Shown here one piece after another: positions 8,748-27,540 of a stretch of 64,000 nucleotides of DNA. A program made the position numbers and the translations under genes. The stretch lies in the NCBI GenBank assembly GCA_045612715.1, contig JAZKZP010000125.1, forward strand, positions 9,943-73,942, given 5' to 3'. This DNA is from Eubacteriales bacterium (GTDB taxonomy: Bacteria > Bacillota > Clostridia > Oscillospirales > CAG-272). Positions within the stretch are counted from its first letter, which is position 1; each line of letters opens with the position of its first letter. Below the pieces are notes generated by a model that saw only the letters and a program-made list of their open reading frames with translations, ran no database searches and was not told the origin of the DNA.

Positions 8748-9238
8748 TTTGATTCTCCTTTTATTGTCTTAATTTTTCTTTCAACAGCTCTGCTGAAATT
8801 AGTTGCTCTGGTTCGGATTTCTTTAGTCAGTCGCTCTCCTGTGCGGGCGATTTTAGACACATCTTCTGCCGTTAAGCTTTGTTTCAAAAGCGCGTGAATT
8901 AAGCGATTTCGATCTTCTTTCCACTCTAATATTTCATCCATTAAAGTGTCAGAAAAATATTTGTGCGCGATTGATTTCTTTTCGCGAGCAAAATCTTGTA
9001 TATAAGCAATCTTGGAATCCAAAGTTACTTGATAACGACCTCGTTTCTTTAAATACGCCTCCCACTTCCCTGCGTGACGAATAATGGACTCAGTTCTATC
9101 TTCGATTATGGTATACTCTATGAATATAGCCTCAAGATAAAACCCCGATGCAAGAGCTCTTTTGAGTCTTACAAACTGTTCGCGATAATTCTCATGCTTT
9201 TGAACATTATCGGCAGTTATGAATTCTTTAACGTCCAT
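8744..9238 (-). CDS. Helical protein with an HEPN-like Rx4H motif (164 aa)
   Basis: ORF track entry. EDRNRLIHALL fits the HEPN RNxxxH / Rx4-6H signature near the last helix. It is translationally coupled (ATGA at 8744-8747) to the 650-aa LRR gene. The CDS call is solid, but the HEPN assignment is tentative. Confidence 0.6.
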   Translation of the reverse strand: MDVKEFITADNVQKHENYREQFVRLKRALASGFYLEAIFIEYTIIEDRTESIIRHAGKWEAYLKKRGRYQVTLDSKIAYIQDFAREKKSIAHKYFSDTLMDEILEWKEDRNRLIHALLKQSLTAEDVSKIARTGERLTKEIRTRATNFSRAVERKIKTIKGESK

Positions 9239-9262
9239 AACGACTCCCTATGATATTCGTTT

Positions 9263-10897: not shown

Positions 10898-10917
10898 TTT
10901 AATGTCTCCTTATTGTT

Positions 10918-12333
10918 TTATATTTCTTCTTTATCAAGCACAAGTTTGATTGCCCACGGAGGCACGTTAGGATTAAAATTATCTTCGCGAATAAAGACGA
11001 ATGCGGCATCGTAATTTGGCTTTCTTTCCGGGAATATGCCCCATCCATCCGTAAAATAAATAACACCTTTAAGGCGAGTTAATTCGCCTGATTTTACAAG
11101 TTCATTTACATAATTGAAAGCTGGACGAAAGTCCGTGCCACCAAAACCGTGCAGCTGCATATTTTTTATGTAATCATCGAATTCCCTTTGCGATGTTATC
11201 TTAACAACTTCTTGAATTTTAGCATCGCATTGGATTATATATAGATTAATTTTCGAGAAGAAACTCTCAGTATTTTTCAAAATGTTATATGTTTTATTAA
11301 TGAACGTCTGCACAAGCTCACCTGAAACGGAACCAGATGTATCTATAATAATCGCAAACTCGCGAATTCTTTTAACATCCTTATATTCAAGTGGCTCAAT
11401 AAGAGGCATTTTTTTATAAAGCTTGAGTCCATAAGTATAGAAGACATAATCAAACTCGTCATCATTTATCTTTATTGCCTCGCCCATCACAGCAAATTTC
11501 TTTAAGAAGGTCGTATAATCATATTTCTCACGATTCACTTCCCTAAGATTTTGCATCATGCTTCCGGCTTTGTCTCCTTGCTCTTTTGAGAAAGTTTCAA
11601 GGTCTTGAAGCATACGCTCGGAAATTTCTTTCCAACGTTCTTCTAATTCCTTATTGCCTGATTTTCCCTCGTTGTTGGATTGATCATATGACGAATCCTC
11701 ATTAGGTTCTCCACAATCGTTGTTTCCACTAGTTTCTTCTCTTTCGTTCGAATGATCTCCTCCAGCAGTATGATTACTACCTGGTAATAAATCATCAGGC
11801 AAATACCAAATAGAATGATCATCAGCAAAGAAAAGATCTCTTATTTTCCTTATTTCATCATCATTTATTTTTTTATCTAAATAATATCGATAAATTTTTT
11901 CTGCAGTTAGATGCTTCAATTCTTTTTTCAACAAAGAAATAATGTCGTTCTGCTTGTTAGCTCTAGCTGCATATATTGAAGTCATATCAAGCTCGTTGAT
12001 AATATTTTCTACGGCTATATCGCAAGCCAAATCCCATATATTAGGATTTAATAATTCATTAACAAAATTATGTCTATATAAACAATGTAACAATGTATGC
12101 AAATAATCTCTTGTTACAATGTAGTGTTCAGCTGAATAGCGTTTAAGTATATATATTGGATTATAATACAAATACTTACCATCAGTGGCAAATGATACCT
12201 TGTTTGTGCTTTGAGGATTTAGCTCAGCTATCGCCAAATCCAAAAAGCGCATATTGATTGCCAAAGTGTTGCGTGATAAGCGTAATATATCTTCAGCAAG
12301 TTTTTCAATTTTTAATAGATCCTCGTTCATCAC
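10918..12333 (-). CDS. vWA-domain protein with an N-terminal metallopeptidase-like domain (DUF2201-type; 471 aa)
   Basis: MIDAS motif IIIDTSGSVSG is present. The N-terminal LHTLLHCLYRH sits where this family carries an HExxH-like motif; here it is HTLLH, with the Glu absent. An acidic low-complexity linker is present. This is the typical partner of AAA_5 MoxR ATPases. Confidence 0.8.
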   Translation of the reverse strand: MMNEDLLKIEKLAEDILRLSRNTLAINMRFLDLAIAELNPQSTNKVSFATDGKYLYYNPIYILKRYSAEHYIVTRDYLHTLLHCLYRHNFVNELLNPNIWDLACDIAVENIINELDMTSIYAARANKQNDIISLLKKELKHLTAEKIYRYYLDKKINDDEIRKIRDLFFADDHSIWYLPDDLLPGSNHTAGGDHSNEREETSGNNDCGEPNEDSSYDQSNNEGKSGNKELEERWKEISERMLQDLETFSKEQGDKAGSMMQNLREVNREKYDYTTFLKKFAVMGEAIKINDDEFDYVFYTYGLKLYKKMPLIEPLEYKDVKRIREFAIIIDTSGSVSGELVQTFINKTYNILKNTESFFSKINLYIIQCDAKIQEVVKITSQREFDDYIKNMQLHGFGGTDFRPAFNYVNELVKSGELTRLKGVIYFTDGWGIFPERKPNYDAAFVFIREDNFNPNVPPWAIKLVLDKEEI

Positions 12334-12419
12334 GCAACACCTCCCTTTAAAATAGTTGTATAGCTTAATATATTGCTATAGTCGTATTTATACTCGTATT
12401 TTTCCCCTTTATTTTTTGT

Positions 12420-13214
12420 TTACAAGTTATTATTTTTCCAATCCAAAAGATATGCAACACATTGCTTTGCTCCTGCTTTTAGAGCCGGCTCAAAAAAAGC
12501 ACTATTAAAGTTTTTTGCAGTTATGTAGCCATGTTGAGCATATACATGTATTGCTTGCACCATATCTTCTACAAAAACTTCTTCTAATAATCTTTTCTTT
12601 TGAGATCCGATATACTTAACCATTTCCGGATCCGCATTTGTATATACTTCAGGATAGCTAAGATAACCTCTTGCAGCAGGAAGCATCAATTTAACACGTT
12701 TTATTGTTTTCCAAGGAAGCTTGGGTGCTGTAATTCTATATATTTTTGTCTTAGGTGATATACTCCACAACGAGTTTAATCCTAAACTACCCAAAACGTA
12801 AATATCTCTTAATGCATGACAGTATTCAAATGTGCCCAAGTCATCTAACTCTACATCGGCAAGAATCTTGACAGTAGTTAGATATATAGATCTGTTAAAT
12901 GCACCCCATCCAATGTGACTCACTGAGTCAGGAATTTCTATACTTTCAAACCTACTCCATGCAAAGGCTTTAGAACCAATATAATCCACAGAGTTTGGAA
13001 TTTCTATTTGTTTTAATAAATCACACCCCAAAAAGGCTTCTGTATCAATTCTTTTAACAGAGTTCGGAATAATTATCTTAGTTATTTTTCCACAACCTGC
13101 AAATGCCTTTGTACCAATACAAGTAACTCCGTCTGGTATAACAACTTCCGTACCTTTTCCTTTGTACTTTATTAATAAATTATCTTCAATAATAAAATCA
13201 TTAGTTTTGCTCAT
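12420..13214 (-). CDS. Short LRR_5 protein plus the shared C-terminal helical module (264 aa)
   Basis: N-terminus is MSKTNDFIIEDNLLIKYKGKGTEVVIPDGVTCIGTKAF. The C-terminus (YRITAPKLPW...YIGSQKKR...YLLDWKNNNL) is homologous to the tail of the 650-aa protein. Confidence 0.8.
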   Translation of the reverse strand: MSKTNDFIIEDNLLIKYKGKGTEVVIPDGVTCIGTKAFAGCGKITKIIIPNSVKRIDTEAFLGCDLLKQIEIPNSVDYIGSKAFAWSRFESIEIPDSVSHIGWGAFNRSIYLTTVKILADVELDDLGTFEYCHALRDIYVLGSLGLNSLWSISPKTKIYRITAPKLPWKTIKRVKLMLPAARGYLSYPEVYTNADPEMVKYIGSQKKRLLEEVFVEDMVQAIHVYAQHGYITAKNFNSAFFEPALKAGAKQCVAYLLDWKNNNL

Positions 13215-13259
13215 TTCTAATGTCCCCTAATATGATTCCTCCAAATTATCATTTACAAA

Positions 13260-14231
13260 TTATCGAATAATTTTAGCGTTTTTACACCCTGCCAATGCAT
13301 CTGATCTGATTTGCGTCTCACTATTAGTTACAACTACATTTCCAAGTGATTCGCACTTGTAAAATGCCCCCGACCCGATAGACTGCACGGCATTAGGTAT
13401 GGTAATGGTCGTTAGTGATTTGCAATTTTTAAAAGCATCCGCTTCAATCTTAGTTAAAGATTCTGGCAATGTTATGCATGCCAAAGATTTGCACCCCTCA
13501 AAAGCCTCATTTCCGATAATAGTTACCGAGTTAGGAATATGTACATGGGTCAATTTTTTGCATTTACTAAATGCACCTTTGCTAATTTCAACAACAGAAT
13601 CAGGAATAACAATTTCAGAAAGCGATTCACACGCACAAAATAATCCTAGATCAAGGATTTTTAATGAGTTGGGTAAAGTTACATTGGTCAAAGACTGGCA
13701 CAGGAAGAAAGCTTGATCACCCAATTTAGTTACAGACTTAGGAATATCAATACTCTTTAAAGAAGAACACCAGTGAAATGCCTCGCTATCAATACGTTTT
13801 ACAGAATTTGGAATAGTTATATTTTCCAAAGAAGTACAATATGCAAAAGCTTTTTCCCCAATTCGAGTAACTGAAATGGGAATCACAACTTCAGTTAACT
13901 TTTCACATCCAAAGAAAGCATATTTGCTAATTGTACCCATAGAACCAGAAATAACAACACTTTTTAATCCAGTTTGAGCAAATGCATAATCTCCAAGTTG
14001 AGTAACAGAGTTTGGAATATCTATGTTAGTTAATGATTGGCAATCTCTAAAAGCGAATTTCCCTATTTCGGTTACAGAATTTGGGATTTGTACACTTGTT
14101 AAAGATCTGTTACTCAAAAATACATTTTTATCAATTTTTGTTACTCCTTCCGGAATTACTACTTCGGTATCACTACCAGTGTATTTTTTCAACACACCAT
14201 CTTCAATAATAAAATCATTAATATTACTCAT
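13260..14231 (-). CDS. LRR_5 (BspA-type) repeat protein (323 aa)
   Basis: N-terminus is MSNINDFIIEDGVLKKYTGSDTEVVIPEGVTKIDKNVF, followed by about 12 LRR_5 repeats. No signal peptide. Confidence 0.85.
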   Translation of the reverse strand: MSNINDFIIEDGVLKKYTGSDTEVVIPEGVTKIDKNVFLSNRSLTSVQIPNSVTEIGKFAFRDCQSLTNIDIPNSVTQLGDYAFAQTGLKSVVISGSMGTISKYAFFGCEKLTEVVIPISVTRIGEKAFAYCTSLENITIPNSVKRIDSEAFHWCSSLKSIDIPKSVTKLGDQAFFLCQSLTNVTLPNSLKILDLGLFCACESLSEIVIPDSVVEISKGAFSKCKKLTHVHIPNSVTIIGNEAFEGCKSLACITLPESLTKIEADAFKNCKSLTTITIPNAVQSIGSGAFYKCESLGNVVVTNSETQIRSDALAGCKNAKIIR

Positions 14232-14333
14232 AAATTTTTCCTTTCCACGTTAAGCACGTCGGCGTTTATTGTTTTTTATATCACAAATGCTAAACATCAA
14301 GTAATCGCGATATGATAAATTCATACGAATTAA

Positions 14334-14822
14334 TTACATTTCATCTAAAAGAATATCATCTGACAATGCATCAATATCAAAATTGTTACCTTCTACTGTT
14401 GAAGAAAGAAAGTTTTTAATATTCTCCATTGATTCAAGAGGTGTAGCCCCGATTTGCTCGGCAAGTTTAGTTACACCGAAATTAGCGAACTGTGTCAAGA
14501 AATCTATTTTCTTGAATTCAGTTTTTTCACCAAAAGCTAATTCAAGACGCTCATCTTCAGTGAGGTTTTCGGTGGCAGTTGATAAAATTGCTGCTTGAAA
14601 CATAAAATCAAGTCTACCATTATCATTATTTTGAATTACATTTCTCGGAACCGAGTGAGTATATTCCTCATCTGATGCAATTCTTTTATCATACATGATG
14701 CCTATGGACATTGAAAGCATATATATGCTATATTGAACTCTTGGCTTAAATAATGGAGCAAGAGCATCTATTGCCTTATCCCAATCTACGCCTCTCAAAG
14801 CTACATCTGTGGTTATTTCCAT
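14334..14822 (-). CDS. 162-aa mostly helical protein with an acidic C-terminus; last gene of the PLD-helicase/ABC operon
   Basis: ORF track entry. Its start overlaps the ATPase stop by 10 nt (14813-14822). No motif recognised. Its size and position fit a small adaptor or middle component. Confidence 0.7.
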   Translation of the reverse strand: MEITTDVALRGVDWDKAIDALAPLFKPRVQYSIYMLSMSIGIMYDKRIASDEEYTHSVPRNVIQNNDNGRLDFMFQAAILSTATENLTEDERLELAFGEKTEFKKIDFLTQFANFGVTKLAEQIGATPLESMENIKNFLSSTVEGNNFDIDALSDDILLDEM

Positions 14823-16768
14823 AAATGTCCCTCCTCTACCTTTGCAATATTCTTTTCTTCATTACTTACGATGGTATAAACTCTGCCGATATTTTCTTGA
14901 GCGAAAATCTCGTGTAAATCGTCTTTAGAGAACAAAATAACTTGTGGAGCAAACTGTGGAATTGCATCAATTACATTTTGTCTTTGGTCAGGGTCAAGTT
15001 TTGAAAATGGACCGTCGAGCACCAAAGGATATTCTTTAGCATTAAGATTTTCTTCGCTTTGAAGCATTCTCAAAATACCGCCGATATACGCAAATGATAC
15101 AACCGCAAATTGACCTTCAGACTTGGATTCATCTCCAAAGCTATCGGTTACACGAACAGAAAATTCTCTACTTACACTAACGTTACGTTTACTCGTCAAC
15201 ATTTCGTTAATAAGCTCTTGAATGTTTTCTTCAAGTCTTTGACTATATGCAACAGATTCATTATCAAGTCTGTCTTGGAAATATTGAAGAACCTTTTCCA
15301 TTATCTCAATTTTTTGGTTAATCTTGTCCACAGCAACAACCTTAGATGTCAACTCATCGTATTTCTTCATCCAAGTTTTAAGATAAATATCCAATTTTTT
15401 AAGTTCTGTAACCAATTCAGTAATTCTTGTATCCAAAGCTTTAACATCAGCTTCAGCCTTTTGGCGGTCAATAACGAGATGCTCTATATCCGGGCTCTTC
15501 TTTTCCGCCTCATCAAGTTCCCTAATTTTAACATCGCATTCATATGCCTTTTCACTGTTTTCAAGCACTAATCTGATATGATCCTCAACCTTACTCTTAT
15601 CATATCCCTGTTTCCATCTTTGTGCTGAACGAGTAAATTCTGTGTACAAATATGTATATGATGGCGGAAGCATAGCAAGATATTTTTTGAGATGTTCTCT
15701 TTGCTCTCTACATATCTCTTGTCCGCATATACATTCGGTAGTGCTATCTTGAAGTAAATAATTAATTAATGGCTTGTTGATACCGTTAGGCAATTTGCTT
15801 TGCTCTATCTTCAAATGAATCTTTTCTTTTGCATCCTCAACGGTTTTAGCCATTAAATGCATTGGATACATATTAAGAACAGTAGCACCAAATTCTTTTT
15901 GTTGAGCTTCGGAGTTGCGAATAAAAAGTTCTCTCTGAGCACGCAACTCTTTTCGTCTTGCCTCATATTCAGCTTTGGACTTACTACTACCTATTTTTTC
16001 GGATATTTCGGTAATTAATCTCTTCTTCTCTTCTCTTTCTTCAATAGCCTTGTTTTGAAGAAGTGTATATTTTTCAATACGAGCTTGTGCCTGCTCAATA
16101 TTATATTTTGCAGTAGCTATTTCGCTACCACTAGCAGCAGAACCCTTGCTTAGGTATAGTTTGCCAAGTACGGTGGTTTTCAAATCAGTTCTACCTATAT
16201 GGTTAATCGCTGCCTCTATAACATCAAGATCAAACATTGAATATAAAGCTTTACGAAGTTTGCCCGCGGAGTCTTTCCCTTTTACTCTAAGGTCGGCAAT
16301 CATACTCTCTCCGTCAAAGAAGAAATATTCTGAAAGACCGGATGGGAGCATCTTTTCGATTACTTCTTTAGGGCGATCCATACGCTTCCAGTTGTGGTCT
16401 TCATCTCTCTGATTCAAAGCAAAATCTTCTGCTATCTTTTCAGAATCATCAAGCCCTTTTTTATATTTGTGAGTTCTTGTCAAAGAATATTGAACGCCAT
16501 CGTGTTCAAAATCTATTCTGCCCATTACATTAAAGACCGCACCGTATGGTTGCTCACTTTCAAATTGAAGATTATATAGTCTATCAGTAGTTGTCTTGTT
16601 GAAATGAACCTGTCCATAAAAAATCCACTGAAACAACTGATGAAGTGTTGTTTTACCGTCACCATTCTTACCGTATATGATGGTTACTTTCCCATCAGTT
16701 GAACATTTGATTTGTCCATAATCCTTAAAATTTCGGAAATTTTCAAATTCAATTTTACTTATTCTCAT
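14813..16768 (-). CDS. DndD/Rad50/SMC-like ABC ATPase with a long coiled-coil insert (651 aa from ATG 16768)
   Basis: N-terminus is MRISKIEFENFRNFKD...IIYGKNGDGKTTL (Walker A). About 350 aa of heptad-rich sequence follows, including ECICGQEIC. The signature-like motif is KSEGQ, and LVLDGPFSKLDPDQRQN (Walker B/D-loop) resembles DTPLGRLD..HR.N of DndD. I prefer the ATG at 16768 (AAGGAGG upstream) to the track start at 16795. Confidence 0.8.
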   Translation of the reverse strand: MRISKIEFENFRNFKDYGQIKCSTDGKVTIIYGKNGDGKTTLHQLFQWIFYGQVHFNKTTTDRLYNLQFESEQPYGAVFNVMGRIDFEHDGVQYSLTRTHKYKKGLDDSEKIAEDFALNQRDEDHNWKRMDRPKEVIEKMLPSGLSEYFFFDGESMIADLRVKGKDSAGKLRKALYSMFDLDVIEAAINHIGRTDLKTTVLGKLYLSKGSAASGSEIATAKYNIEQAQARIEKYTLLQNKAIEEREEKKRLITEISEKIGSSKSKAEYEARRKELRAQRELFIRNSEAQQKEFGATVLNMYPMHLMAKTVEDAKEKIHLKIEQSKLPNGINKPLINYLLQDSTTECICGQEICREQREHLKKYLAMLPPSYTYLYTEFTRSAQRWKQGYDKSKVEDHIRLVLENSEKAYECDVKIRELDEAEKKSPDIEHLVIDRQKAEADVKALDTRITELVTELKKLDIYLKTWMKKYDELTSKVVAVDKINQKIEIMEKVLQYFQDRLDNESVAYSQRLEENIQELINEMLTSKRNVSVSREFSVRVTDSFGDESKSEGQFAVVSFAYIGGILRMLQSEENLNAKEYPLVLDGPFSKLDPDQRQNVIDAIPQFAPQVILFSKDDLHEIFAQENIGRVYTIVSNEEKNIAKVEEGHLWK

Positions 16769-16916
16769 TTGAAACCTCCTTATCAAGTTCGTCAAGTATT
16801 GCTTTTACAATATCATTTTTCGCTTGACTTTCACCGACCATCTTCTCAGCTTGAAGTTGTCTTTCTTTTTCTTCAATAAAGGAAACTAAATTATTAACTA
16901 TTTTCTGATTACTCAT
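16755..16916 (-). CDS. 53-aa micro-ORF bridging the helicase and ATPase genes
   Basis: Below the ORF-track size cut-off. Peptide: MSNQKIVNNLVSFIEEKERQLQAEKMVGESQAKNDIVKAILDELDKEVSNENK. Its ATG overlaps the helicase stop (GATGAGTAA at 16909-16917). Its 3' end overlaps the ATPase start and carries that gene's RBS. This is a translational-coupling layout. Confidence 0.5.
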   Translation of the reverse strand: MSNQKIVNNLVSFIEEKERQLQAEKMVGESQAKNDIVKAILDELDKEVSNENK

Positions 16917-18954
16917 CTAACTTTTCCTCCACATCTTCATAATCGTACACATCTACGTCCGAATAATTAAGACCATAGTGATATAAATAATTTTCAAATT
17001 CTGGTTTTAACTCATTCCAGTTTAATGCAAGCTTAGCATATTCGCGAAATCTTCTAAACTCTATTTTTGCCCATGCCGTAAGTTCTGTAGAAGGCAAAAC
17101 TATTACATCGTATATGTGCGCACTTTTTTTGCCATTATAAGTTCTTAAAATACGTCCACGCCTTTGAACAAATTCCCTATAATCATCGTTGCTTGAAAGA
17201 ATTAATGCACTCTTGATTGACGGAATATTAATACCCTCGTCCAAGCATCTTATTGCTGTCAACGCAGATATTTCTCCCTTGTTAAAGGCATCGACTAACT
17301 CCATACGTTCATGCATATTTTCTTGTGCAGTAAACTGACTTGCCTTATAACCAGCAGAAGAAAGAACGCGTTTTATAGACTGTATATGTCTAAGTTCCTC
17401 TCCGGTATTGTTATCGAACAATCTACCATCACCGCAATATACAACAACGTGATCTTGCTCTTTAACAGAATCTATTATTTTCATAATATACTTCTGCTTT
17501 TCTTCTGCCATGGAGATGGCACGCAATCTACCTCTCAATGCTATAACAAGTTTCTCGTGATCTATGCATACTTCATTTCTGAAACAAGAGGCTATTCGAG
17601 CACTAAAATAATTGAATTTTTCTTCGTCATCTTGCGTACTGTCTACAAATATCGGGTGATAATAATATGGAACAAGGTACCCTCTCTCAAGGGCATCTTC
17701 TATCGTTAGGCTAAATACTTGTCCTCCAAAGAAGTTCATTAATTCTTTACCCTTAGTTGCAGATGTACCACTAAATGGTGTAGCACTTAAACCAAGCATA
17801 AACTTAAACTGACAAGAAACATCCTCTGATTGATTTGTAAATCTATGTGCTTCATCTACAATCAAAAGTTTATCTTCATTGGATTTTATCAGTGTGTTTT
17901 GAAATCTATCCATGTTGAAAGAAGCAATTGTAGAAATAATTATGATCTGTTTATCCGGATTATATCGCTTATTAATAATTGCTTCTGTCATTTGTTGCTC
18001 CCACTTGGGATTTTCCGATGAAACAAGGATTATTTTAGCATCAATAAATGCTTTTTCCACATCTTCACACCACTGCTTAACTAAATGTTTATACGGAGCA
18101 CAAATCACAATCATCGAAGAATGAGTTTTAAGCAATTCTTTTGCAGAATAAATTGCTGTCCAAGTTTTACCGGTACCTGTTGCCATAACATAAAATCCGT
18201 GATAACCGTTATTGACCCAGGATGCAATGGCTTGCTCCTGGTAATCTCTCAATGTTATGGGATTTTTTGGACTCGAAGATGATTTTCTTTGTTCTATCAT
18301 TTGCAAAATATTAGATTCTGCACTTTTTTTATAATCATAAACTTTAACGAATTCATTGGTACCATTCCACAAAGAATCAAATTCTTTGATTTCGTCTTCT
18401 ATTCTTTCATTATCTTCATTAATCCAACTTTTAGCGGTTCTTATCTTCTCGTAATTATGTTGATAACCACTCAACGTAGCATTAGCTGATCCATAAAAAA
18501 CAATTATATTACCATCAAAATCGGTAAGAATACCTAATTTGTCGTGATAAATACCATAAGTTTCAGTTACTGCAATCTTAATATCCAAAATTCCTCTCGC
18601 TATTAATGTAGCTAATAACTGAAGTTTGGCGTCATCAAAAATTTCGATTTCGCGCATAAATTCTCGTGTAAAAGAGTTATTAATTACTTTTTCTCTTGCT
18701 TCGTATCCTAAATTAATAGCCTCAATGTCTTCGGCGGTTAATTGAGGACTTGCAATCAATTGAACTCGCCCATTATTTCTCGCGAGGGCAACAATACCAT
18801 CAATAATTGGTTCTAAAACTGAAGATGAGAAAAATCCAACGCTTCTTTTATATTCTTTTGTACATTTTAAAGCTGGAGTTAGAAAAGCTTTTGCTATGCT
18901 ATCCTGACCCATACTAACATAACTTTGTTTAATTTCTAAATCTCTAAAATTCAT
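16909..18954 (-). CDS. PLD-family (single HKD) nuclease domain fused to a DEAH-box SF2 helicase (~681 aa)
   Basis: HKD motif is IYHDKLGILTDFDGNIIVFYGSANAT. Helicase motifs are VMATGTGKTWTA (I), LIVDEAHRF (II), LGLSATP (III) and QRRGRILR (VI). The ATG at 18954 forms an ATGA overlap with the upstream stop. The track's 18960 start is a TTG. Confidence 0.85.
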   Translation of the reverse strand: MNFRDLEIKQSYVSMGQDSIAKAFLTPALKCTKEYKRSVGFFSSSVLEPIIDGIVALARNNGRVQLIASPQLTAEDIEAINLGYEAREKVINNSFTREFMREIEIFDDAKLQLLATLIARGILDIKIAVTETYGIYHDKLGILTDFDGNIIVFYGSANATLSGYQHNYEKIRTAKSWINEDNERIEDEIKEFDSLWNGTNEFVKVYDYKKSAESNILQMIEQRKSSSSPKNPITLRDYQEQAIASWVNNGYHGFYVMATGTGKTWTAIYSAKELLKTHSSMIVICAPYKHLVKQWCEDVEKAFIDAKIILVSSENPKWEQQMTEAIINKRYNPDKQIIIISTIASFNMDRFQNTLIKSNEDKLLIVDEAHRFTNQSEDVSCQFKFMLGLSATPFSGTSATKGKELMNFFGGQVFSLTIEDALERGYLVPYYYHPIFVDSTQDDEEKFNYFSARIASCFRNEVCIDHEKLVIALRGRLRAISMAEEKQKYIMKIIDSVKEQDHVVVYCGDGRLFDNNTGEELRHIQSIKRVLSSAGYKASQFTAQENMHERMELVDAFNKGEISALTAIRCLDEGINIPSIKSALILSSNDDYREFVQRRGRILRTYNGKKSAHIYDVIVLPSTELTAWAKIEFRRFREYAKLALNWNELKPEFENYLYHYGLNYSDVDVYDYEDVEEKLDE

Positions 18955-21674
18955 ATCCAATCCTCGTCCATATCTAAATCAATATCAATTTCTTCTGCGA
19001 TCAGATCATCGATATTATCCAAATTATCAATAGTGTATATTTCTTTTAGCGTTTCAGTAACAACTCCAGCAAATTCACTAATATCTAATTTACCTACTGG
19101 AGCAATTAAAGGTGCCGATAATCTGAATTGATTATATGTCGTACCTACAGTTAATTCCTTACTCCATTTCAAAACAATACTATATATCAGCCATTCATTC
19201 CAAGGTGCTGAAATTTGGGGTAATTTATGAAGACAATCAAGTGATGAAACCAAAACCGTTTCATTGACATTATCCTGCAACAATTCAATTACTTGATTAG
19301 CAATTTCCTCTGTTATACCTAGAAAATCCCATGTAGCCAAATATTGTTGATTCATCAAAGCATGCGTATCATTAAAAGAATTCAACAATTCTAAAATAGA
19401 GGATATATCATAGTGAGATTCTTTGGCAAATTCCATAATATCAGAAATGACTATTTCATCACTATTCAAAATCATATCTTTAATTTGTTCTTCTGGATTT
19501 TCTATATTAACATTATAATTTGCTATATATGGTCTCTTAAATTGATACTTATCGTGGAATAAATACTCCAATACCGAATACATAGCAGAAGGAACATCTA
19601 TAAATAATTTGTTTAATAAATCATTATCATCTTTTTGAATATACTCAAATATCTCTATGTAGTGCTTAGGCTTGTCGGCAGCAAGAAATTTTGATACTAC
19701 TGCATTCAAATAATTTTTATCATAATCAGTAATTTTCAATTTGCTTGCATGAATATACTTTCCAAACATATTTAAAATGCCATTGCCACTCAACGCATAA
19801 GCTATAACCACTTCCGTAACTCCTGGGAAAGCTTTATATATTACTTCTTTTTTAATGGGATAATCATATTGTTTAACATAGTTTACAATTTCCACATGGA
19901 ATGATGATGCAAACTCATTTTTAGATATATAATCCCTACGGAAAACAAATTCATTACCAAACAATTCTTTGAGTACACCCTGAAGATAATATTTGTTATC
20001 TATACCTTGTTCTAACAACTTTTCTTCAAATATGGAGAACAAAGTATTTGTAAGGAAAATCTCGGCTGGATTATCAATTATATATTGATATATCTCATCT
20101 GCTAATTCCTTAGAAATATATTGAGTTCTTTTGGGCATATACTTGCCTCTTCCACAAAGAACAGACAAGTCTGCAATTCTACCAGAGATTGCTCTATTGT
20201 TCTCTGGAACAGTTCGACAACCATATTCTTCTGAAGCTATATATCTAACAACATTCAATTCATCCTCATCGTAAATATCCAATCCCTGAGGATAGTACTT
20301 CTCTAATATTGCAGTATATACTTGAGAAAGTGACATTCTAGCTCTATGATAAGTAGATCCGTCCTTAGGAAATTCATCTAAGATAGCTTTTTCAATCAAC
20401 TCCTGAGGTATACCTTGGTTTTCGATAGCATCAGTAACCACTTCATCGTATGTTTTTTCATCAAAAGTATCAGGCAACTGAGCAATTATGTTACTAACAA
20501 TGCTGTCAATAGAATCATCTCCCATTATAAACAAGTCAAGTTGGGAGTCATAATAATATGATGAACTACCTGACTTTCTTAAAAGATAAACCATCTCATA
20601 ATATTTATCTTCAAAATAAGGCATGAGCTCTGATGAGGATAAAACGTTATCCCCATTTAATTCAGCTGATATTTTTGACAAAATGCGCTTCTTATTATGA
20701 TAAAATTCAAAAATTCTATTTGCTTTTGCTTCCAGCTGTCTAATTCTCTCACGAGTAATTCCAAGTTTTTCTCCAACCATTTGAAGAGTTTCACCTCTTG
20801 ATCTTCCTTTAAGAATAATTTCCATATTGGGAGATCTACCATAAATACTCGTAAATATTTCAAGTACTTCTTGTTTTATATCAAAAGAACACCATTCCAA
20901 AAAACGAAGCAATATCGCATATGCTTCCTCGTTTTCGAGTAATACATCTATATCAATACTTTTAACTTTGGCATCTGGTTTTTCTGCTATTTGATATACT
21001 AAATTTAAAAGTTCTTGTATATCTTCTTTTCTTGTGTATGCCTTAATATATCCTTGTACTTTGTTTTCCAATCTGTCTTTTGGAATGTTCTTAAATCTCT
21101 CATCTATTTCTCTTCGTTTACGCTCATATCTATTGGTATTACGAATAAATTCCGTAAACATATTCATTACAGGAATAATAGTATTGGGTGATGCATAACA
21201 TTGGCGTGCTAAATCTGTTCCCAATATATCTATTGCTTCTCTATATTTGCAACTTTCTTCTTTAAGTTGCTCTGAAATTTCGTCCGCTTCAACAAATGAA
21301 AAATCATTATTCAATATATTTTCTATATTCTCTTTAATTATTTGATTGTGTCTAATAGCATTCGCATTCACATCGCTATTTTCTTTAATTTCAATAGAAT
21401 TTCCCTTACTCAAGTTATAAAAAAAGAGATGCAATTCGTCAACAGTCTTTTTTCCCGCATTTCTAAAATTTGAAAAATCCGAAACTTTTGTCGCATACAA
21501 CTTATGCAAAGTTGTAATACCATTTCTCATTAAAACGTTAGAAGTGCGCACCGAAAAAGAGAGTGTTAAAACGCTCACATCTTCAATCATCGATAAATCA
21601 ACAGGATACATTTCCCAAAATGTTTTATCTATTATTAAATTTTCGTCAATATATCTTTTGTGATCTTCATTCAT
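18951..21674 (-). CDS. 907-aa protein with an RNAP alpha-CTD-like HhH domain, a sigma-70 region-4-like HTH and a large unknown C-terminal region
   Basis: LSFSVRTSNVLMRNGITTLHKL...FRNAGKKTVDEL aligns by eye with alpha-CTD (LELTVRSANCLK...NLGKKSLTEI). GETLQMVGEKLGITRERIRQLEAKANRIF aligns with sigma-70 region 4.2 (TLEEVG..VTRERIRQIEAKALRKL). The remaining ~550 aa are unrecognised. Confidence 0.8.
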   Translation of the reverse strand: MNEDHKRYIDENLIIDKTFWEMYPVDLSMIEDVSVLTLSFSVRTSNVLMRNGITTLHKLYATKVSDFSNFRNAGKKTVDELHLFFYNLSKGNSIEIKENSDVNANAIRHNQIIKENIENILNNDFSFVEADEISEQLKEESCKYREAIDILGTDLARQCYASPNTIIPVMNMFTEFIRNTNRYERKRREIDERFKNIPKDRLENKVQGYIKAYTRKEDIQELLNLVYQIAEKPDAKVKSIDIDVLLENEEAYAILLRFLEWCSFDIKQEVLEIFTSIYGRSPNMEIILKGRSRGETLQMVGEKLGITRERIRQLEAKANRIFEFYHNKKRILSKISAELNGDNVLSSSELMPYFEDKYYEMVYLLRKSGSSSYYYDSQLDLFIMGDDSIDSIVSNIIAQLPDTFDEKTYDEVVTDAIENQGIPQELIEKAILDEFPKDGSTYHRARMSLSQVYTAILEKYYPQGLDIYDEDELNVVRYIASEEYGCRTVPENNRAISGRIADLSVLCGRGKYMPKRTQYISKELADEIYQYIIDNPAEIFLTNTLFSIFEEKLLEQGIDNKYYLQGVLKELFGNEFVFRRDYISKNEFASSFHVEIVNYVKQYDYPIKKEVIYKAFPGVTEVVIAYALSGNGILNMFGKYIHASKLKITDYDKNYLNAVVSKFLAADKPKHYIEIFEYIQKDDNDLLNKLFIDVPSAMYSVLEYLFHDKYQFKRPYIANYNVNIENPEEQIKDMILNSDEIVISDIMEFAKESHYDISSILELLNSFNDTHALMNQQYLATWDFLGITEEIANQVIELLQDNVNETVLVSSLDCLHKLPQISAPWNEWLIYSIVLKWSKELTVGTTYNQFRLSAPLIAPVGKLDISEFAGVVTETLKEIYTIDNLDNIDDLIAEEIDIDLDMDEDWI

Positions 21675-21714
21675 TTTATTATCCTCATCGCAAAATTATA
21701 TAAATATATATAAT

Positions 21715-21743
21715 ATAATAACATATATCACGAGAAAAATCAA
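21715..21743 (-). promoter_or_regulatory. Promoter inside repeat cassette A (drives the 907-aa gene operon)
   Basis: On the minus strand: TTGATT (21743-21738), 17-nt spacer, TGT-TATTAT extended -10 (21720-21715), about 40 nt upstream of ATG 21674. Confidence 0.5.
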
Positions 21744-21828
21744 GCAAAATACACAAATACTTGTACTTTTCGACTATTTTTATTCTTTTATCTAATTTTA
21801 TCATTTTTTATTCTTGTTTGCAAGAAAA

Positions 21829-21852
21829 AGGTGTAGCGAGATTGCTACACCT
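21829..21852 (-). terminator. Intrinsic terminator in cassette A
   Basis: The minus strand reads AGGTGTAGC-AATCTC-GCTACACCT followed by TTTTTCTTG. Confidence 0.6.
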
Positions 21853-21950
21853 TAGGTCAATTCACATTATAAATGTTTATTTTTCAGTTTTTCAAGAGTT
21901 CTCCTTAAGGCGATAAAAATGTAAAAGCAAAATATTATATTTTCTACACA

Positions 21951-21974
21951 AAAGGAGCGCCAAAGCGCTCCTTT
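21951..21974 (-). terminator. Intrinsic terminator of the 1834-aa gene
   Basis: AAAGGAGCGC-(4 nt)-GCGCTCCTTT hairpin lies 24 nt past the stop at 21998, followed on the minus strand by TGTGTAG. It sits in tandem with the cassette A terminator. Confidence 0.6.
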
Positions 21975-21997
21975 ATTTGGGGGTTAAATGATAACAT

Positions 21998-24900
21998 TTA
22001 TTTCTTTGGCATAGGATATTTTTGTCCTGAGCGCATAGGAAGTGAAGATAATTTATTCTTTAATTGGGTTTCAGCTTCTCGTTTGCTATCATCATACTTT
22101 TTAACCAAAGTTGCCTTTTCATTTTTGAGTGTATTAATATCAAAGGTCAAGTTTTGAATTTTGTTCTTCAATATTCCTTTGCGAATGAAGAATATAATTC
22201 CTGTGCAAAGAAAAGTAAAAAATGACATAGACTCAAGTTTTTGTTTTGTAGCAGCAAGCTCTTTTTCTTTTTCAGTAATTTGAGCTTCAAGAGAAGTAGC
22301 TTTTGTATTGTACTCATTAGACAATTTAGCAAGTGTATTTTGACACTCTTCTTCCGCTATCTTTGTCTCACTCGTAATAAACTCTTCTCGTTTTTGCTTA
22401 ATTTCTGCTTCTTGTGCTTTGCGCTTATCTACTTCTTGTTTTCTGCGTTCAGCGTCTTCCTGTGCCTTACGGTAGGCTTCTTCAATAGAATTTCCCGATG
22501 CTACTTCCTTGGCTGTTCTCAACGCCTCTTCTTCACGTGTTTTGCGCTCGGCTGCTTCAGCATCCGATTGAACAACTACATTTTTGGAAGTTTTATTTGA
22601 TTTCGGTTTTAATTTTCTAGCCCAATATACAGTATGTCTGCCTTTTTCTTCATAAAATTTCTTATCCCAATCTTTTTCCCAATCACTTGGTTTTGATTCC
22701 GCATCACAATAAATTGCTGTTAAAGGAGATTCCATGAATACTTTGTTTCCCATTCTAACTACAGATATCGGGATGTGTGCAGTTGTAAGTGATGCACAAA
22801 AAGCAAAAGCATTATCATCTATGCTTCTGAGGCCCTCTGGAAAACGAATTTCACGGAGTGATGAACAACCACTAAACGCGTATGCATCTATGCTTTTCAA
22901 GTTATCATTAAATTCAACACTTACTATTGATTCACAGTCATCAAATGCAAACAAACCAATCTTTTCTACAGAGTCAGGGATAACTACACGAGCCTGATTT
23001 CCTTTATATTTTTTAAGTACTCCATCTTCTATCTCAAATATAGAATCCTCCCAGTTGGAACCTACATTAGCAACTTTAGACCAATCTACTTTATACTTAT
23101 TATCACCAACAGAGGATGTATTGTTCCATTTTTCATCCCAACCATTGGGTTTACTATTAGCTTCACAGTATATAGTCATATTATCATTACAGGACTGAAA
23201 TGCAAATGGTTTGATCGTTTTAACCGACGAAGGGATTGTAATGCTCACCATTTCCTCAGCCCAAGTGATAGCACACTCTTCTATGTTAGTTACTGAGTTA
23301 GGAACTTCAAAATGTTGCAAAGAATCACAAAATCCTAAAACATAAGAATTTAGAGTAGTAATGGAGTTGCTAAATATTGCTTCTCTCAATGAAGAGCAAC
23401 TAGAAAAAGCACTGTTTCCTATAAATACAACACTGTCTGGAATATTTACACTAACAAGTGAGGTGCATTCGTAAAATGCATTGTTTTCTATTTTTGTAAG
23501 CGTATCCGGAAAATCTATTTCAGAAAGTGCAGAACACTCACTAAATGCAAAAGAACTTATCTCCTTGAGTCCATCATTTAGTTGAACGCTTTCAATAGAT
23601 GTACATTCTGAAAATGCTCCGCAAGCAATTCTTTCCACGAAATCAGGCACGACCACATGTGACTGATTACCTTTATATTTCGTAAGTACTCCATCTTCAA
23701 TTTCGAAATCTTGAATTGATGTTGTTGTAGTTTTTGAAGTTGTTTTCTTTTTTGTGGGAGTTTTGGCTTTTGCGGGGGCTTCTTTCTCCTCATCATGATC
23801 TTTGACATTAGACCCCCATACTACAGGGCAATAATCGCCCCAGTGTAGCCAATTCCAATCTTCGTGCCATTTACTAGGCTTTGAATCAACCTCACAGAAA
23901 ATGGTAACTGCAGTACATCCAAAGAATGCAGAGTCTTCAATTTCCATAACGGAACTTGGAATCGTTACTTTTTCAAGAAATCTAGAATATGCAAAAGCAT
24001 TTTTGCATATTTTTGTTACGGAATTAGGAATAGTAACATTTTCAATATACATATTTCTATAAAATGCTTGATTCCCTATTTCTATTACGCCTTGTGGTAT
24101 TAAAACATTAGCGCTATTTCCGTTATACGATATCAAAACACCATCATTAATTTCAAAAGCATCCGCCTCGGACACGCTAGATTGATTGCTCTTTCCAGGA
24201 TAGAATATAGTTGTAGTATCACCAGACTGCTTTATTTTAATTTGAGAAGTTGAATCTGTAATAGTATTGTGTACACACTTAGTCTTCTTCATCCATTCTT
24301 CAAGCACTTCAATGAAGTTATCAATAACTGCCGTGTCTTGTGAATCTACTTCTCCACCGTGGTTATGATATGCGTGGAATTGATACCCACCTACTTCGGT
24401 AAGCAAGAATCCGTTTGCCTTATTATAAGTCGGATCGCTAACATCGTACCAAGTTTGATATAAATAAGCACAATTCAAGTCTGATATCACGCGTCTAACC
24501 TGCACATTAGGGTTAAGAAGTCCTTTTAATTTAAACATCATTTCCATGCTATCAAGCATACCTTCATTAAATGGTTGAGTATTAGCAGGTCTTGATGCGA
24601 TAGCAAAGCTGAAGGGTTTGGCATCAATGTGATTGCTTCCATCAGGGGTGTTTTCAGAAACTGTATAAGTCCAACCACTATTGACACCGTCATTAGCGCC
24701 AGAACGATATCCATCGGGAATTGCGCAATGAATTACATCGTCAATAGTAAATTGTCTCCTATCATGATACGTTGGAACATTGCTTTGAACTTGTTCTTTC
24801 AACGCTGCTTTCACGCATTCTTGATGGTTTGCTTGTTCAAATTCATGATTTTCACTTTTTGCAAAGTGAACTGAAGACTCATATTCTGAGGGATTTGCTC

Positions 24901-27502
24901 CCCAAACAACAGGAAGATTATCAATATTCCACAACTCCAACCAAAATCTCGGTTTAGATTCGGCTTGAACATGAATAGTTAAATTTTTACATCCTTCAAA
25001 TATATCAACTCCAGTGCTCTTAACGCTATCAGGTATAAAAACAGTCTTTAAAGATGTACAGTTTCTAAATGCTCCCTCCGCAATATTAGTAACCGTCGAA
25101 GGAATGTAAACACTTTTAAGAGAGGTACATCCTTGGAAGGTTTGCCATTCTATTTTTTCTATAGAATCGGGAAGTTTAATACTTTGTAGAGATGTGCAAT
25201 CTCTAAACGCTGCACCATCAATTCTAACAATCGTATTTGGAATATCTATACTCTTTATAGTCTTACATCCATCAAATGCACGTTCACCAATTTTCGTAAC
25301 CGAATCGGGAAGCACAACATGATCTGCAGATCCTGTATATTGTTTTAGAATTCCTCTATTTACCGTAAATTCAGCATTATCTCCTATCGTTTTGCCAACA
25401 ACTCTCTTGCGCTCTGCTTCTTCTTTGGCTTTGTGTTCAGCTTCTTTAGATATGCAACCTAACTCTTCTTTATCGTGAATTTTAGAGTGATTATTTAATT
25501 CTGTAGCACCCCAAACTACATTATGTTGGTCTTCATTAAATGAATAATCAAGCCATTCTTCATCCCAACCATCCGGCTTTGATTCCGCTTCGATATAAAT
25601 GGTTGTACGATTGCAAGAATAGAACACTCGTGCTCCCATTGTTTTAACTGTTTTGGGAATAAAAATACTCTCAAGGTTTTTACATCCCGTAAACGCCTCT
25701 TCGCCTATGCTAACTACAGAATCGGGAATGTTTATACTCTTCAGCGACTTACAATATGAAAATCCTCCAGCGCCAATTTCCTTAAGTGAGTCAGGTAACA
25801 CAATGGTTTTCACAGAATCAAGAAAACTAAAAGCATTATCTCCAATTATTACAACAGATTCACCCACAATCAGTTCTTTTGCCGATGCACAGCCGCTAAA
25901 AGCAATTTCACCAACAAATTCAACAGAATCAGGAATAACAATTTTTTCTAGCGCAGTATTATCTGTAAATGCTGCTGTTTCAATTACCTTTGCAGAATTA
26001 CTAATAACCAATTTTTTGAGTGAATTGTTTTTCCCGAGACCGCCCGAAATAGTTATTACAGAATTTGGAATGATCAATTCCTCTATTGCGGGACACCCCT
26101 CAAAACACGCAGGCATTTCAGTAATTCCATTACCAAATTGCACTTTCTTAAGAGAAGGACATCCACTAAAAGCAGAAGAGTGGATTTGGGTAACATTATC
26201 GCCTATGGTTACAGTGACAAGGTTCTCGCAATTATGGAAAGCCATTGGAGAAATGCTTTTAACCACGTTCGGAATTACAACATGTTTTTTATTTCCGTAG
26301 TATTTGAATAAGTCACCATCATAGATACCAAATTCATCCTCGTCATAGTCGTCATCTCCAATATCATTATTATAATCGTCTACAGACTCCTCGCATTCAT
26401 CTTCATCATCTCCCTCATCAGAATCCAAACTATCAAAATCGATTTGCATTTTATTTTTTAACGACTTTGCTGTCATTTTTCCTATAGCAATTGGACTATC
26501 ATTAACAGTCAAGGCTTTGAGAATATCCAAAACATACCCATAATGTTCTTCGTCATCGTAACCTTTAACATTAGCCTTCCATGTAAATACAAGAGATTTA
26601 TCATTTTCTGTTTGAATTACAAGGCATGTTTGGGACAAATAAGTCGAAAGTACATTTTCAATAATTGTGAACTTAATTGGGATATTAAGAATTGAAACAA
26701 AAGGACTCTTTTGCAAATTGTGTATTTTTACACCTCTTACTTGAGAGAGGGTTTGAACATCAAATTCTCTTTTGATGGTGTCATCAATATCCAAGGAGTC
26801 AAAAGAAACCTCTACTTTGTTCTTATACAATTCTTTGCCATCATCATTAAAATACTGATAACCGTAAATAGTACAAATACCATTATCGTCCTCATCTTCG
26901 CCATCTTCGCTAGCATAATCATTTATTACAAAATACTCCGCTGGAATTTTGAATTTTACATCATCACAAATCGTATATGTACCGCTAGAAGTTGTATTGC
27001 TCTCTTCCAAAGCTCTATTTTTTTCCCTATTTGCTTTGAGTGTTTGCTCGTAGTAACTAAAATCTTCGGCATCATATCCGTCAGTTTGGTCTACGTAAAC
27101 ACGGCACATTGCACCTTCCTCATACACCGCGTTGTGTATAAGTTTCTTTACATCATAGTTAGGAAAGTCCTCATCAAAAAAGCCTTCAAGGGCACTTATT
27201 ATGTTAGTGGCTGTCAATGCTTCTTCTTCATCTTCTGCCTCTTGCTCTGAACTTCTACCGTCATAATCATCTTCAAGTAATTGATTTATGTAGTAATCCC
27301 CACCGCCATCCACATCACACAACTGACGGGTAACAGTTACAACATTATCACTTACATTAATCCAGCCGATTGTGTCTTTCGGGTATGCTTGGTATTTGAG
27401 AAGTAATTTTTCTACCTTTTCCGCTAATTCTTCATCATAAATACCGTAAGCCACAAAACTCGAACTTGATGAATTTGTTACAAAATCAGTCCTTATTTTC
27501 AT
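21998..27502 (-). CDS. Giant multi-module LRR_5 protein (1834 aa) with a conserved N-terminal domain, coiled coil and a possible C-terminal tail anchor
   Basis: N-terminus is MKIRTDFVTNSSSSSF. There are five LRR_5 modules, each ending in a cap of the form (E/D/N)SKPxxWxxxW...VxW(G/A/S): ESKPDGWDEEW, ESKPRFWLELW, DSKPSKWHEDW, NSKPNGWDEKW, ESKPSDWEKDW. Acidic linkers separate them. The C-terminus has a Lys/Glu coiled coil and then the hydrophobic stretch FFTFLCTGIIFFI. Confidence 0.85.
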   Translation of the reverse strand: MKIRTDFVTNSSSSSFVAYGIYDEELAEKVEKLLLKYQAYPKDTIGWINVSDNVVTVTRQLCDVDGGGDYYINQLLEDDYDGRSSEQEAEDEEEALTATNIISALEGFFDEDFPNYDVKKLIHNAVYEEGAMCRVYVDQTDGYDAEDFSYYEQTLKANREKNRALEESNTTSSGTYTICDDVKFKIPAEYFVINDYASEDGEDEDDNGICTIYGYQYFNDDGKELYKNKVEVSFDSLDIDDTIKREFDVQTLSQVRGVKIHNLQKSPFVSILNIPIKFTIIENVLSTYLSQTCLVIQTENDKSLVFTWKANVKGYDDEEHYGYVLDILKALTVNDSPIAIGKMTAKSLKNKMQIDFDSLDSDEGDDEDECEESVDDYNNDIGDDDYDEDEFGIYDGDLFKYYGNKKHVVIPNVVKSISPMAFHNCENLVTVTIGDNVTQIHSSAFSGCPSLKKVQFGNGITEMPACFEGCPAIEELIIPNSVITISGGLGKNNSLKKLVISNSAKVIETAAFTDNTALEKIVIPDSVEFVGEIAFSGCASAKELIVGESVVIIGDNAFSFLDSVKTIVLPDSLKEIGAGGFSYCKSLKSINIPDSVVSIGEEAFTGCKNLESIFIPKTVKTMGARVFYSCNRTTIYIEAESKPDGWDEEWLDYSFNEDQHNVVWGATELNNHSKIHDKEELGCISKEAEHKAKEEAERKRVVGKTIGDNAEFTVNRGILKQYTGSADHVVLPDSVTKIGERAFDGCKTIKSIDIPNTIVRIDGAAFRDCTSLQSIKLPDSIEKIEWQTFQGCTSLKSVYIPSTVTNIAEGAFRNCTSLKTVFIPDSVKSTGVDIFEGCKNLTIHVQAESKPRFWLELWNIDNLPVVWGANPSEYESSVHFAKSENHEFEQANHQECVKAALKEQVQSNVPTYHDRRQFTIDDVIHCAIPDGYRSGANDGVNSGWTYTVSENTPDGSNHIDAKPFSFAIASRPANTQPFNEGMLDSMEMMFKLKGLLNPNVQVRRVISDLNCAYLYQTWYDVSDPTYNKANGFLLTEVGGYQFHAYHNHGGEVDSQDTAVIDNFIEVLEEWMKKTKCVHNTITDSTSQIKIKQSGDTTTIFYPGKSNQSSVSEADAFEINDGVLISYNGNSANVLIPQGVIEIGNQAFYRNMYIENVTIPNSVTKICKNAFAYSRFLEKVTIPSSVMEIEDSAFFGCTAVTIFCEVDSKPSKWHEDWNWLHWGDYCPVVWGSNVKDHDEEKEAPAKAKTPTKKKTTSKTTTTSIQDFEIEDGVLTKYKGNQSHVVVPDFVERIACGAFSECTSIESVQLNDGLKEISSFAFSECSALSEIDFPDTLTKIENNAFYECTSLVSVNIPDSVVFIGNSAFSSCSSLREAIFSNSITTLNSYVLGFCDSLQHFEVPNSVTNIEECAITWAEEMVSITIPSSVKTIKPFAFQSCNDNMTIYCEANSKPNGWDEKWNNTSSVGDNKYKVDWSKVANVGSNWEDSIFEIEDGVLKKYKGNQARVVIPDSVEKIGLFAFDDCESIVSVEFNDNLKSIDAYAFSGCSSLREIRFPEGLRSIDDNAFAFCASLTTAHIPISVVRMGNKVFMESPLTAIYCDAESKPSDWEKDWDKKFYEEKGRHTVYWARKLKPKSNKTSKNVVVQSDAEAAERKTREEEALRTAKEVASGNSIEEAYRKAQEDAERRKQEVDKRKAQEAEIKQKREEFITSETKIAEEECQNTLAKLSNEYNTKATSLEAQITEKEKELAATKQKLESMSFFTFLCTGIIFFIRKGILKNKIQNLTFDINTLKNEKATLVKKYDDSKREAETQLKNKLSSLPMRSGQKYPMPKK

Positions 27503-27540
27503 AAATGTTCTCCTTTATAATTTTATTTTTCGGGATTATT

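Follow-up and report, generated by a model that had tools for sequence, protein, structure and literature searches.

A 907-residue protein carrying copies of two RNA polymerase DNA-binding domains opens a Pbe defence operon in a Eubacteriales bacterium

Parts of the transcription machinery appear at the head of a defence operon in a Eubacteriales bacterium, and the question raised by this locus is what they might be doing there. The protein concerned, hereafter X, is the product of the open reading frame (ORF) at positions 18951-21674 of a 64,000-nucleotide stretch of contig JAZKZP010000125.1, which was analysed as a whole and is referred to below as the window. An earlier note on this DNA had seen in X likenesses to the C-terminal domain of the alpha subunit of RNA polymerase (alpha-CTD) and to region 4.2 of sigma-70. 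It proposed that the protein could be a decoy for phage factors that attack RNA polymerase (RNAP), with a DNA-binding regulator or targeting subunit as the fallback. We confirm that X carries copies of two DNA-binding domains of RNAP, far beyond what chance would produce, and find that it is the fallback that fits the evidence best: with a probability of about one half, X is a non-enzymatic DNA-binding adaptor or gate for the nucleases of a phosphorothioate (PT)-linked Pbe (CxC-ABC-ATPase) operon. The gene and the parts of its product are as follows.

18951-21674, minus strand: gene X, 907 aa, first gene of the operon; alpha-CTD, helical linker, sigma region 4, winged-helix array and acidic tail.
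21405-21581, minus strand: alpha-CTD-like helix-hairpin-helix domain, residues 32-90 (Pfam, Protein Data Bank (PDB) profile, Foldseek, conservation, charge).
20889-21404, minus strand: helical linker, residues 91-262 (hhalign, NCBIfam MzaA match, conservation).
20685-20888, minus strand: sigma-70 region 4 (4.1 and 4.2) helix-turn-helix (HTH), residues 263-330 (Pfam, PDB profile, hhalign, conservation).
19089-20669, minus strand: about eight tandem winged-helix (WH) domains, residues 336-862 (AlphaFold2 (AF2), Foldseek, hhalign repeat).
18954-19088, minus strand: acidic C-terminal tail, residues 863-907, predicted to be disordered (charge, motif).

The alpha-CTD, which the earlier note had placed at about residues 35-90, is borne out by three comparisons. 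Residues 32-81 match Pfam RNA_pol_A_CTD (E 1.6e-9; 37.8 bits against a cut-off of 23.8); a 37-sequence profile of the X family, compared with PDB sequences, matches the Bacillus subtilis alpha-CTD, 1z3e_B, with E 9e-13; and the corresponding part of the AF2 model superposes on 1z3e_B in Foldseek with a root-mean-square deviation (rmsd) of 0.9 Å over 54 columns and a template modelling score of 0.77, at 27-31% sequence identity. The domain is basic, with an isoelectric point (pI) of 9.9. Its residues R43, N46, G74, K75/K76 and T77 are those that we take to be the equivalents, in position and role, of R265, N268, G296, K297/K298 and S299 of Escherichia coli alpha; at least 90% of the family members retain R43 and G74, and N46 is mostly kept, whereas the K75/K76 positions vary, with a basic residue usually present at one of them. 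R265, to which R43 corresponds on this mapping, is the target of T4 Alt/ModA. As far as the alignment can be judged by eye, alpha's acidic 261 determinant has not been retained. Only residues 31-92 of X match the NCBIfam rpoA models, scoring 20-31 bits against cut-offs of 228-523, and the Pfam scan found no other alpha-subunit domain, the N-terminal dimerization and assembly domain included. In some family members, the alpha-CTD is undetectable or degenerate; in one of them, P0209, an XRE-type HTH_3 was detected and the alpha-CTD was not, the place of the HTH within that protein not having been located.

The second head is a sigma region 4. Residues 293-318 match Pfam Sigma70_r4 (E 2.4e-6; 27.4 bits, cut-off 24.1), and the X-family profile matches residues 3-68 of the Thermus aquaticus sigma-4 structure 1ku3_A with E 5e-12; the coverage of these residues shows that X holds a complete region 4, and not region 4.2 alone. 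The region 4.2 HTH suggested previously at about residues 290-325 therefore stands, as part of a whole region 4 at residues 263-330, and the motifs quoted in its favour and in favour of the alpha-CTD (VRTSN, NAGKKTVDEL and TRERIRQLEAKA) are all present in the translation of X. In addition, residues 267-330 align with sigma factors from the fetched genome loci (hhalign, 98.7%), and a phage Sigma70_r4 protein superposes on the sigma-4 model with an rmsd of 1.3 Å over 49 columns; both segments, then, adopt the alpha-CTD and sigma-4 folds in the AF2 model. This domain too is basic (pI 10.1). When genome contigs were scanned with the whole X alignment, the matches were true sigma factors and one real relative, because the sigma-4 helix is the most conserved pattern of that alignment. 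Those true sigma-factor genes serve as our reference set: in region 4, X shows 35-39% identity to them, whereas they are ~80% identical to one another, and relative to them X has a 6-residue deletion in the loop between 4.1 and 4.2.

The recognition helix of X reads TRERIRQLE, and all 37 of the members that were aligned show the pattern (I/L)(T/S)RER(V/I)RQ(I/L)E, including those with an overall identity as low as 19%; L297, R308, E309, R310, R312 and Q313 are invariant even in the members at that level. We assume these to correspond, in position and role, to L573, R584, E585, R586, R588 and Q589 of sigma-70. X is nevertheless not a sigma factor, since residues 95-262 bear no likeness to sigma regions 1.2-3: Pfam Sigma70_r2 and Sigma70_r3 gave zero matches and hhalign a value of 0.1% for this segment, and with regions 2 and 3 absent that identity is ruled out.

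Beyond the heads, the ~550 residues that had been called unassignable prove to be assignable, as ~8 tandem WH domains followed by the acidic tail. Residues 336-862, when modelled alone, form ~8 WH units with a predicted local distance difference test (pLDDT) score of 85.9, and the best structural matches of the C-terminal 570 residues in Foldseek are UFL1 (E 1.2e-5) and SelB WH1-4 (E 3.4e-4), with Dcc1 and Egalitarian also present. Two of the units, at residues 519-588 and 647-722, are detectable duplicates of one another (hhalign, 96.9%), and seven of the eight are acidic. The last 45 residues carry a net charge of -15 and the motif D(D/N)LDNIDDLIxDxI, and are predicted to be disordered. This motif is present in all 30 closer members, and every one of these for which the genomic context was examined is Pbe-linked; it is absent from the six most distant aligned members (P0071-P0076), which have a different end and of which four are linked to BREX-4 or PDC-M33.

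Taken as a whole, X has a net charge of -53, and its only basic parts are the alpha-CTD, the sigma-4 domain and one WH unit. The complete AF2 model has a mean pLDDT of 83.9. No catalytic or enzymatic domain was detected. Along the chain, mean pairwise identity is 38-61% in the WH array, 47% in sigma-4, 36% in the alpha-CTD and 25-30% in the linkers, such that conservation is highest in the WH array and the helical linker evolves fastest; within both heads, the strongest constraint falls on the DNA-contact positions.

This architecture is not peculiar to the window. The first search returned 77 homologues, and a profile of the C-terminal 570 residues collects 2,616 representative clusters (at the 50% identity level) at E <= 1e-3, with 1,052 of them at E <= 1e-30. 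The module is C-terminal in all 150 matches listed, in proteins no longer than 2,030 aa (~770-2,030 aa for members of full length). Pfam scans of 43 diverse representatives found Sigma70_r4 in 41 and RNA_pol_A_CTD in 33, with HHH_5, XRE-type HTH and PC4 domains as occasional additions; alpha-CTD, sigma-4 and WH array are therefore the common architecture of the family rather than a sporadic insertion. Among six long members that were scanned, five have one or two alpha-CTD matches together with sigma-4 after an unassigned N-terminal extension of ~440-670 aa, and the sixth has no Pfam match. Such extensions in L079, L080, L109, L123 and L147 open with a motif of the type W-x-x-EEA-x-LL-x-D-x-Y, which is reminiscent of a Myb/SANT repeat, although Pfam gives no match. 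The proteins are named 'hypothetical protein' wherever their source names them, and as a family they are not in Pfam, NCBIfam or PADLOC. Our literature search found no description of them, the original 2020 CxC-ABC paper lying outside that search, and nothing relevant on MzaA or on PF03118/RNA_pol_A_CTD. Viral contigs, phage genomes and plasmids yielded no relatives.

Defence genes follow X directly, in keeping with the setting that had been supposed for it, and together they appear to make up a complete PbeA-PbeB-PbeC-PbeD operon, listed here with the DndB gene at the window edge and the region upstream of X:

16909-18954, minus strand: PbeA, an HKD (phospholipase D) nuclease fused to a superfamily 2 helicase (PADLOC PbeA E 3e-201; Pfam PLDc_2, ResIII and Helicase_C; TIGR04095).
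16755-16916, minus strand: PbeB-like small protein, 53 aa (ORF; conserved at this place in 49 related loci; a 53-aa gene stands in the same place in the related locus L001).
14813-16768, minus strand: PbeC, a DndD-like ABC ATPase that has a coiled coil and the CxC motif ECICGQ (PADLOC PbeC E 1.6e-76; TIGR03185 DndD E 1.5e-28).
14334-14822, minus strand: gene at the place of PbeD (162 aa), which overlaps PbeC at the latter's end (conserved in 47 loci).
2-856, minus strand: first 285 aa of DndB, with a DGQHR motif and truncated by the window edge (tblastn, 79% identity to the DndB of L001, annotated there as PF14072).
21675-21997, minus strand: intergenic region upstream of X, with the terminator of a leucine-rich repeat (LRR) gene, promoter-like sites and a terminator-like hairpin at 21828-21853 (consensus scans only).

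X is translationally coupled to this operon: its stop codon overlaps the ATG of PbeA (ATGA, at the junction ATATGA), and a 4-nt overlap is also seen in L001. The protein in the PbeD position has no match in Pfam, NCBIfam or PADLOC, and its comparison with the canonical DndE of the neighbouring dnd cluster, made with shallow alignments, gives 0.1% in hhalign; the literature calls PbeD a DndE cognate (double ribbon-helix-helix). The DndB fragment is probably the start of a dndBCDE modification cluster.

The linkage recurs among relatives. We surveyed 87 loci, namely 80 metagenome contigs, six others and the window; near-identical contigs are among them, which makes the counts higher than the number of truly independent cases. 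PbeA directly follows X in 73 of the 87, most of the remainder being truncated contigs, and PbeB, PbeC and PbeD follow in 49, 58 and 47, respectively, with DndB-E after PbeD in 33-44. The few X-bearing Pbe loci that carry taxonomic labels are from Clostridia. Where PbeA is 78% and PbeC 80% identical, X reaches 53%, and X thus evolves faster than its partners. In 16 loci (L001, at 9169-9981, and 15 more), the gene directly upstream of X, on the same strand, has the Mrr_cat restriction-nuclease fold; the window is without it. L001 also has a GmrSD-like gene after DndE.

Other members keep different company. Distant ones stand directly before BrxP-BrxC-PglZ-BrxL, that is, BREX type 4, which is not known to carry brxA or brxB (L002, 10001-23234; L152, 567-7264). 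The L152 member has an XRE HTH and an undetectable alpha-CTD, and an unassigned 237-aa gene, which shows no relation to DUF6339, lies between it and BrxP. Further members sit beside the PADLOC candidate system PDC-M33 (A, B and C, where C is DUF6339) together with a conserved gene of ~74 aa (L004, 2431-9388; L071, 6298-13309; L142, 2672-8509), the X-family gene lying on its downstream side in two loci (L004, L071) and on its upstream side in four (L141, L142, L149 and L150); PDC-M33 may have an unlisted fourth or fifth component. The simplest arrangement is a minimal two-gene pair in L005 (8870-11851), where a 211-aa NERD nuclease is encoded 9 nt upstream of a 778-aa X-family protein. In PADLOC, that NERD protein also gives matches at the N-terminus of both PglW and MkoA, and residues 168-255 of the X-family protein P0074 match positions 773-856 of PglW; since both match PglW, this protein may hold the two modules in one chain.

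Comparison with known systems places X in familiar surroundings in an unfamiliar form. The four genes downstream of it appear to be those of the system described as PbeABCD by Xiong et al. 2019 (PMC6459918) and as CxC-ABC-ATPase/DndE by the Aravind laboratory in 2024 (PMC10853773), with probable dnd modification genes beyond, but X is an extra first operon gene, absent from the PADLOC Pbe models and from the components described in either paper; those listed for CxC-ABC in PMC10853773 are a helicase-nuclease, a small protein, DndE, methylases and MTaX1. MzaA of the MZA system (NF041931; PADLOC PDLC02203) is likewise a large non-enzymatic protein encoded by the first gene of a defence operon. 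Residues 179-333 of X, and thus a part of the linker (179-262), align to positions 560-711 of the 726 in the NCBIfam MzaA model (E 6.7e-7), that is, to its C-terminal module. The sigma-4 module is, however, C-terminal in MzaA, the match is silent on an alpha-CTD or a C-terminal WH array there, and because it scores 28.5 bits against a family cut-off of 800, only the sigma-4 module can be regarded as common to the two proteins. From RNAP itself, X shares the folds of the alpha-CTD and of sigma-70/SigA region 4 and, on our assumed mapping, the DNA-contact residues R265/N268/G296/K298 and R584/E585/R586/R588/Q589, whereas it is without the alpha N-terminal domain and sigma regions 1-3, is only 27-39% identical in the shared parts and has the sigma loop deletion.

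The WH array has its own parallels. DndG, SspB and the recognition domain of FokI are also non-catalytic tandem winged-HTH (wHTH) modules that accompany nucleases or ATPases in PT-linked restriction (PMC10853773); X has ~8 mostly acidic units against their three, and no sequence relationship was found, FokI giving a marginal Foldseek match (E 0.5, probability 0.07). UFL1, SelB WH1-4 and Dcc1 resemble the array in fold type only (8-15% identity; rmsd >10 Å over the array), and they are eukaryotic or translational proteins with functions unrelated to X.

How might these parts work together? In the adaptor or gate reading, the two basic RNAP-derived heads would hold X on duplex DNA. This DNA is probably promoter-like (-35/UP-like) and universal, rather than a private operator, because the residues that read the -35 element in sigma are invariant across the family. 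The acidic WH scaffold and tail would dock the effector, here the PbeA nuclease-helicase with PbeB, PbeC and PbeD, and in other genomes BREX-4, PDC-M33 or a bare NERD/Mrr nuclease, such that X would either recruit the effector to DNA or gate it there. Consistent with such a role, the C-terminal ends differ between the closer members, which are Pbe-linked where examined, and the distant ones, and the extra domains found in the family (HHH_5, XRE HTH and PC4) also bind nucleic acid. There is precedent in the sigma-type HTH and multi-wHTH modules of PT restriction proteins, namely, DndH variants, DndG and SspB (PMC10853773).

Several points weigh against this reading. The acidity of the WH array means that most of X probably makes no contact with DNA; for the same reason, we rejected the array as a long DNA reader in the manner of DndG or FokI as our principal interpretation. 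The invariance of the recognition helix leaves X unable to provide variable specificity like that of HsdS, and the idea that X is an HsdS-type specificity subunit was discarded on this ground. The relative placement of the domains in the models is of low confidence (predicted template modelling scores of 0.40 and 0.57). The archaeal four-gene PbeABCD cassette gives 10^4-fold protection and is described without an X-like gene (PMC6459918), from which it follows that X lies outside the core mechanism. Lastly, a gene in first operon position whose product has an HTH is also the classic layout of a regulator.

This layout would suit the closest rival, in which X would be a transcriptional regulator of the defence operon, acting as an autorepressor or infection-responsive switch whose RNAP-like heads bind UP and -35 elements in competition with RNAP. 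X is first in the operon behind its own promoter-like region, both heads conserve the residues that read UP and -35 elements, and X is common to unrelated defence systems, as are WYL-type defence regulators such as BrxR. The ability of the core PbeABCD to work without X (PMC6459918) would also suit a regulator. Against this, X-family proteins, at 900-2,000 aa and with a WH scaffold of 570 aa that is conserved, are far larger than known defence regulators, the ATGA overlap with PbeA points to production of the two in stoichiometric amounts, the partner-specific C-termini and the pairing with bare nucleases suggest a physical partnership, X can be the last gene of the set in PDC-M33 loci, and a helix that is invariant over ~2,600 clusters is ill-suited to operon-private operators. 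We therefore regard a regulator as unlikely, albeit the likeliest of the alternatives. Less probable again is that X binds RNAP, either by placing its sigma-4 domain on the beta-flap as an alternative or anti-sigma-like factor, or by coupling defence to transcribing or promoter-bound RNAP. Although region 4 is complete (4.1 and 4.2) and the partly similar MzaA is named 'sigma-70 family RNA polymerase sigma factor' by NCBIfam, a name that points to the former of these roles, X lacks sigma regions 2 and 3 (0.1% in hhalign for residues 95-262; no Pfam r2/r3 match) and the alpha N-terminal domain, and its region 4 combines the 4.1/4.2 loop deletion with low identity to real sigma-4; of all the explanations considered, this is the one that we find hardest to credit.

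The decoy advanced by the earlier note would be an integrated sensor, in which the alpha-CTD and sigma-4 copies would serve as bait for phage proteins that attach to these surfaces of RNAP or alter them, and capture or modification of the bait frees the nuclease and ATPase partners. The idea is a biologically reasonable one. Phages of Firmicutes do target these surfaces, phi29 p4 acting on the alpha-CTD and phage G1 gp67 on region 4 of sigma-A. Both bait-like domains are real, the arginine that we take to match the T4 Alt/ModA target R265 is conserved, X outpaces its operon partners in divergence with its N-terminal half the fastest, and, as a sensor would, X is common to several defence systems and pairs with nucleases. 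The bait would, however, be a poor likeness: judged against other bacteria, as the host rpoA and sigA lie outside the window, the sigma-4 domain reaches 35-39% identity and carries the 6-residue loop deletion, the alpha-CTD reaches 27-31%, and the acidic 261 determinant looks to be absent when the alignment is read by eye. Moreover, the strongest constraint lies on the DNA contacts, the family as a whole has this architecture as its common core and not as a sporadic insertion, the alpha-CTD is undetectable or degenerate in some members, one of them with an XRE HTH, and it is common for alpha-CTD and sigma-4 domains to stand alone as DNA-binding modules outside RNAP, phage proteins being an example. 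The headline of that note accordingly finds no positive support here, and we consider a decoy improbable. Equally improbable is its broader form, in which X would be a general infection sensor adopted by Pbe/Dnd, BREX-4, PDC-M33 and bare nucleases, its RNAP-like promoter-contact surfaces either baiting phage proteins or reading the promoter DNA of incoming genomes, and X freeing the nucleases when engaged; if true, X would be a bacterial equivalent of an integrated decoy, built from parts of the transcription machinery.

Some features of the surrounding DNA deserve mention. In the upstream intergenic region, on the minus strand at 21828-21895, consensus scans alone pick out a near-consensus TTGAAA-18-TATAAT followed by the terminator-like hairpin (10-bp stem, T run), with further promoter-like sites bearing TG extensions after the hairpin; the site and hairpin together may produce a short leader transcript or act as an attenuator. 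Between PbeD and DndB, window positions 857-14333 hold ~13 kb of genes for BspA-type LRR proteins, a DUF2201 metallopeptidase/VWA protein and a MoxR-like AAA ATPase. DndB is within ~100 nt of PbeD in most of the related loci, and this stretch therefore looks like an insertion that has split the Pbe and Dnd modules. Upstream of the operon (21998-30956) lie genes for BspA-LRR proteins of 1,834 aa and 777 aa, preceded by a radical-SAM/SPASM gene (29871-30956), and LRR_5 proteins are abundant over the whole window.

Overall, we conclude that known defence systems have in X a real accessory component, one that is widespread and has gone without annotation. On how PbeABCD stops phages, one study reports no DNA cleavage, and comparative genomics predicts a nuclease mechanism; a conserved and translationally coupled fifth protein with RNAP-derived heads offers a handle on where on DNA, or upon what cue, the nuclease-helicase acts. 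The presence of one family across Pbe, BREX type 4, PDC-M33 and minimal nuclease pairs could explain a targeting or input step common to them, and its recognition would supply defence-system annotation tools such as PADLOC with a component that they lack.

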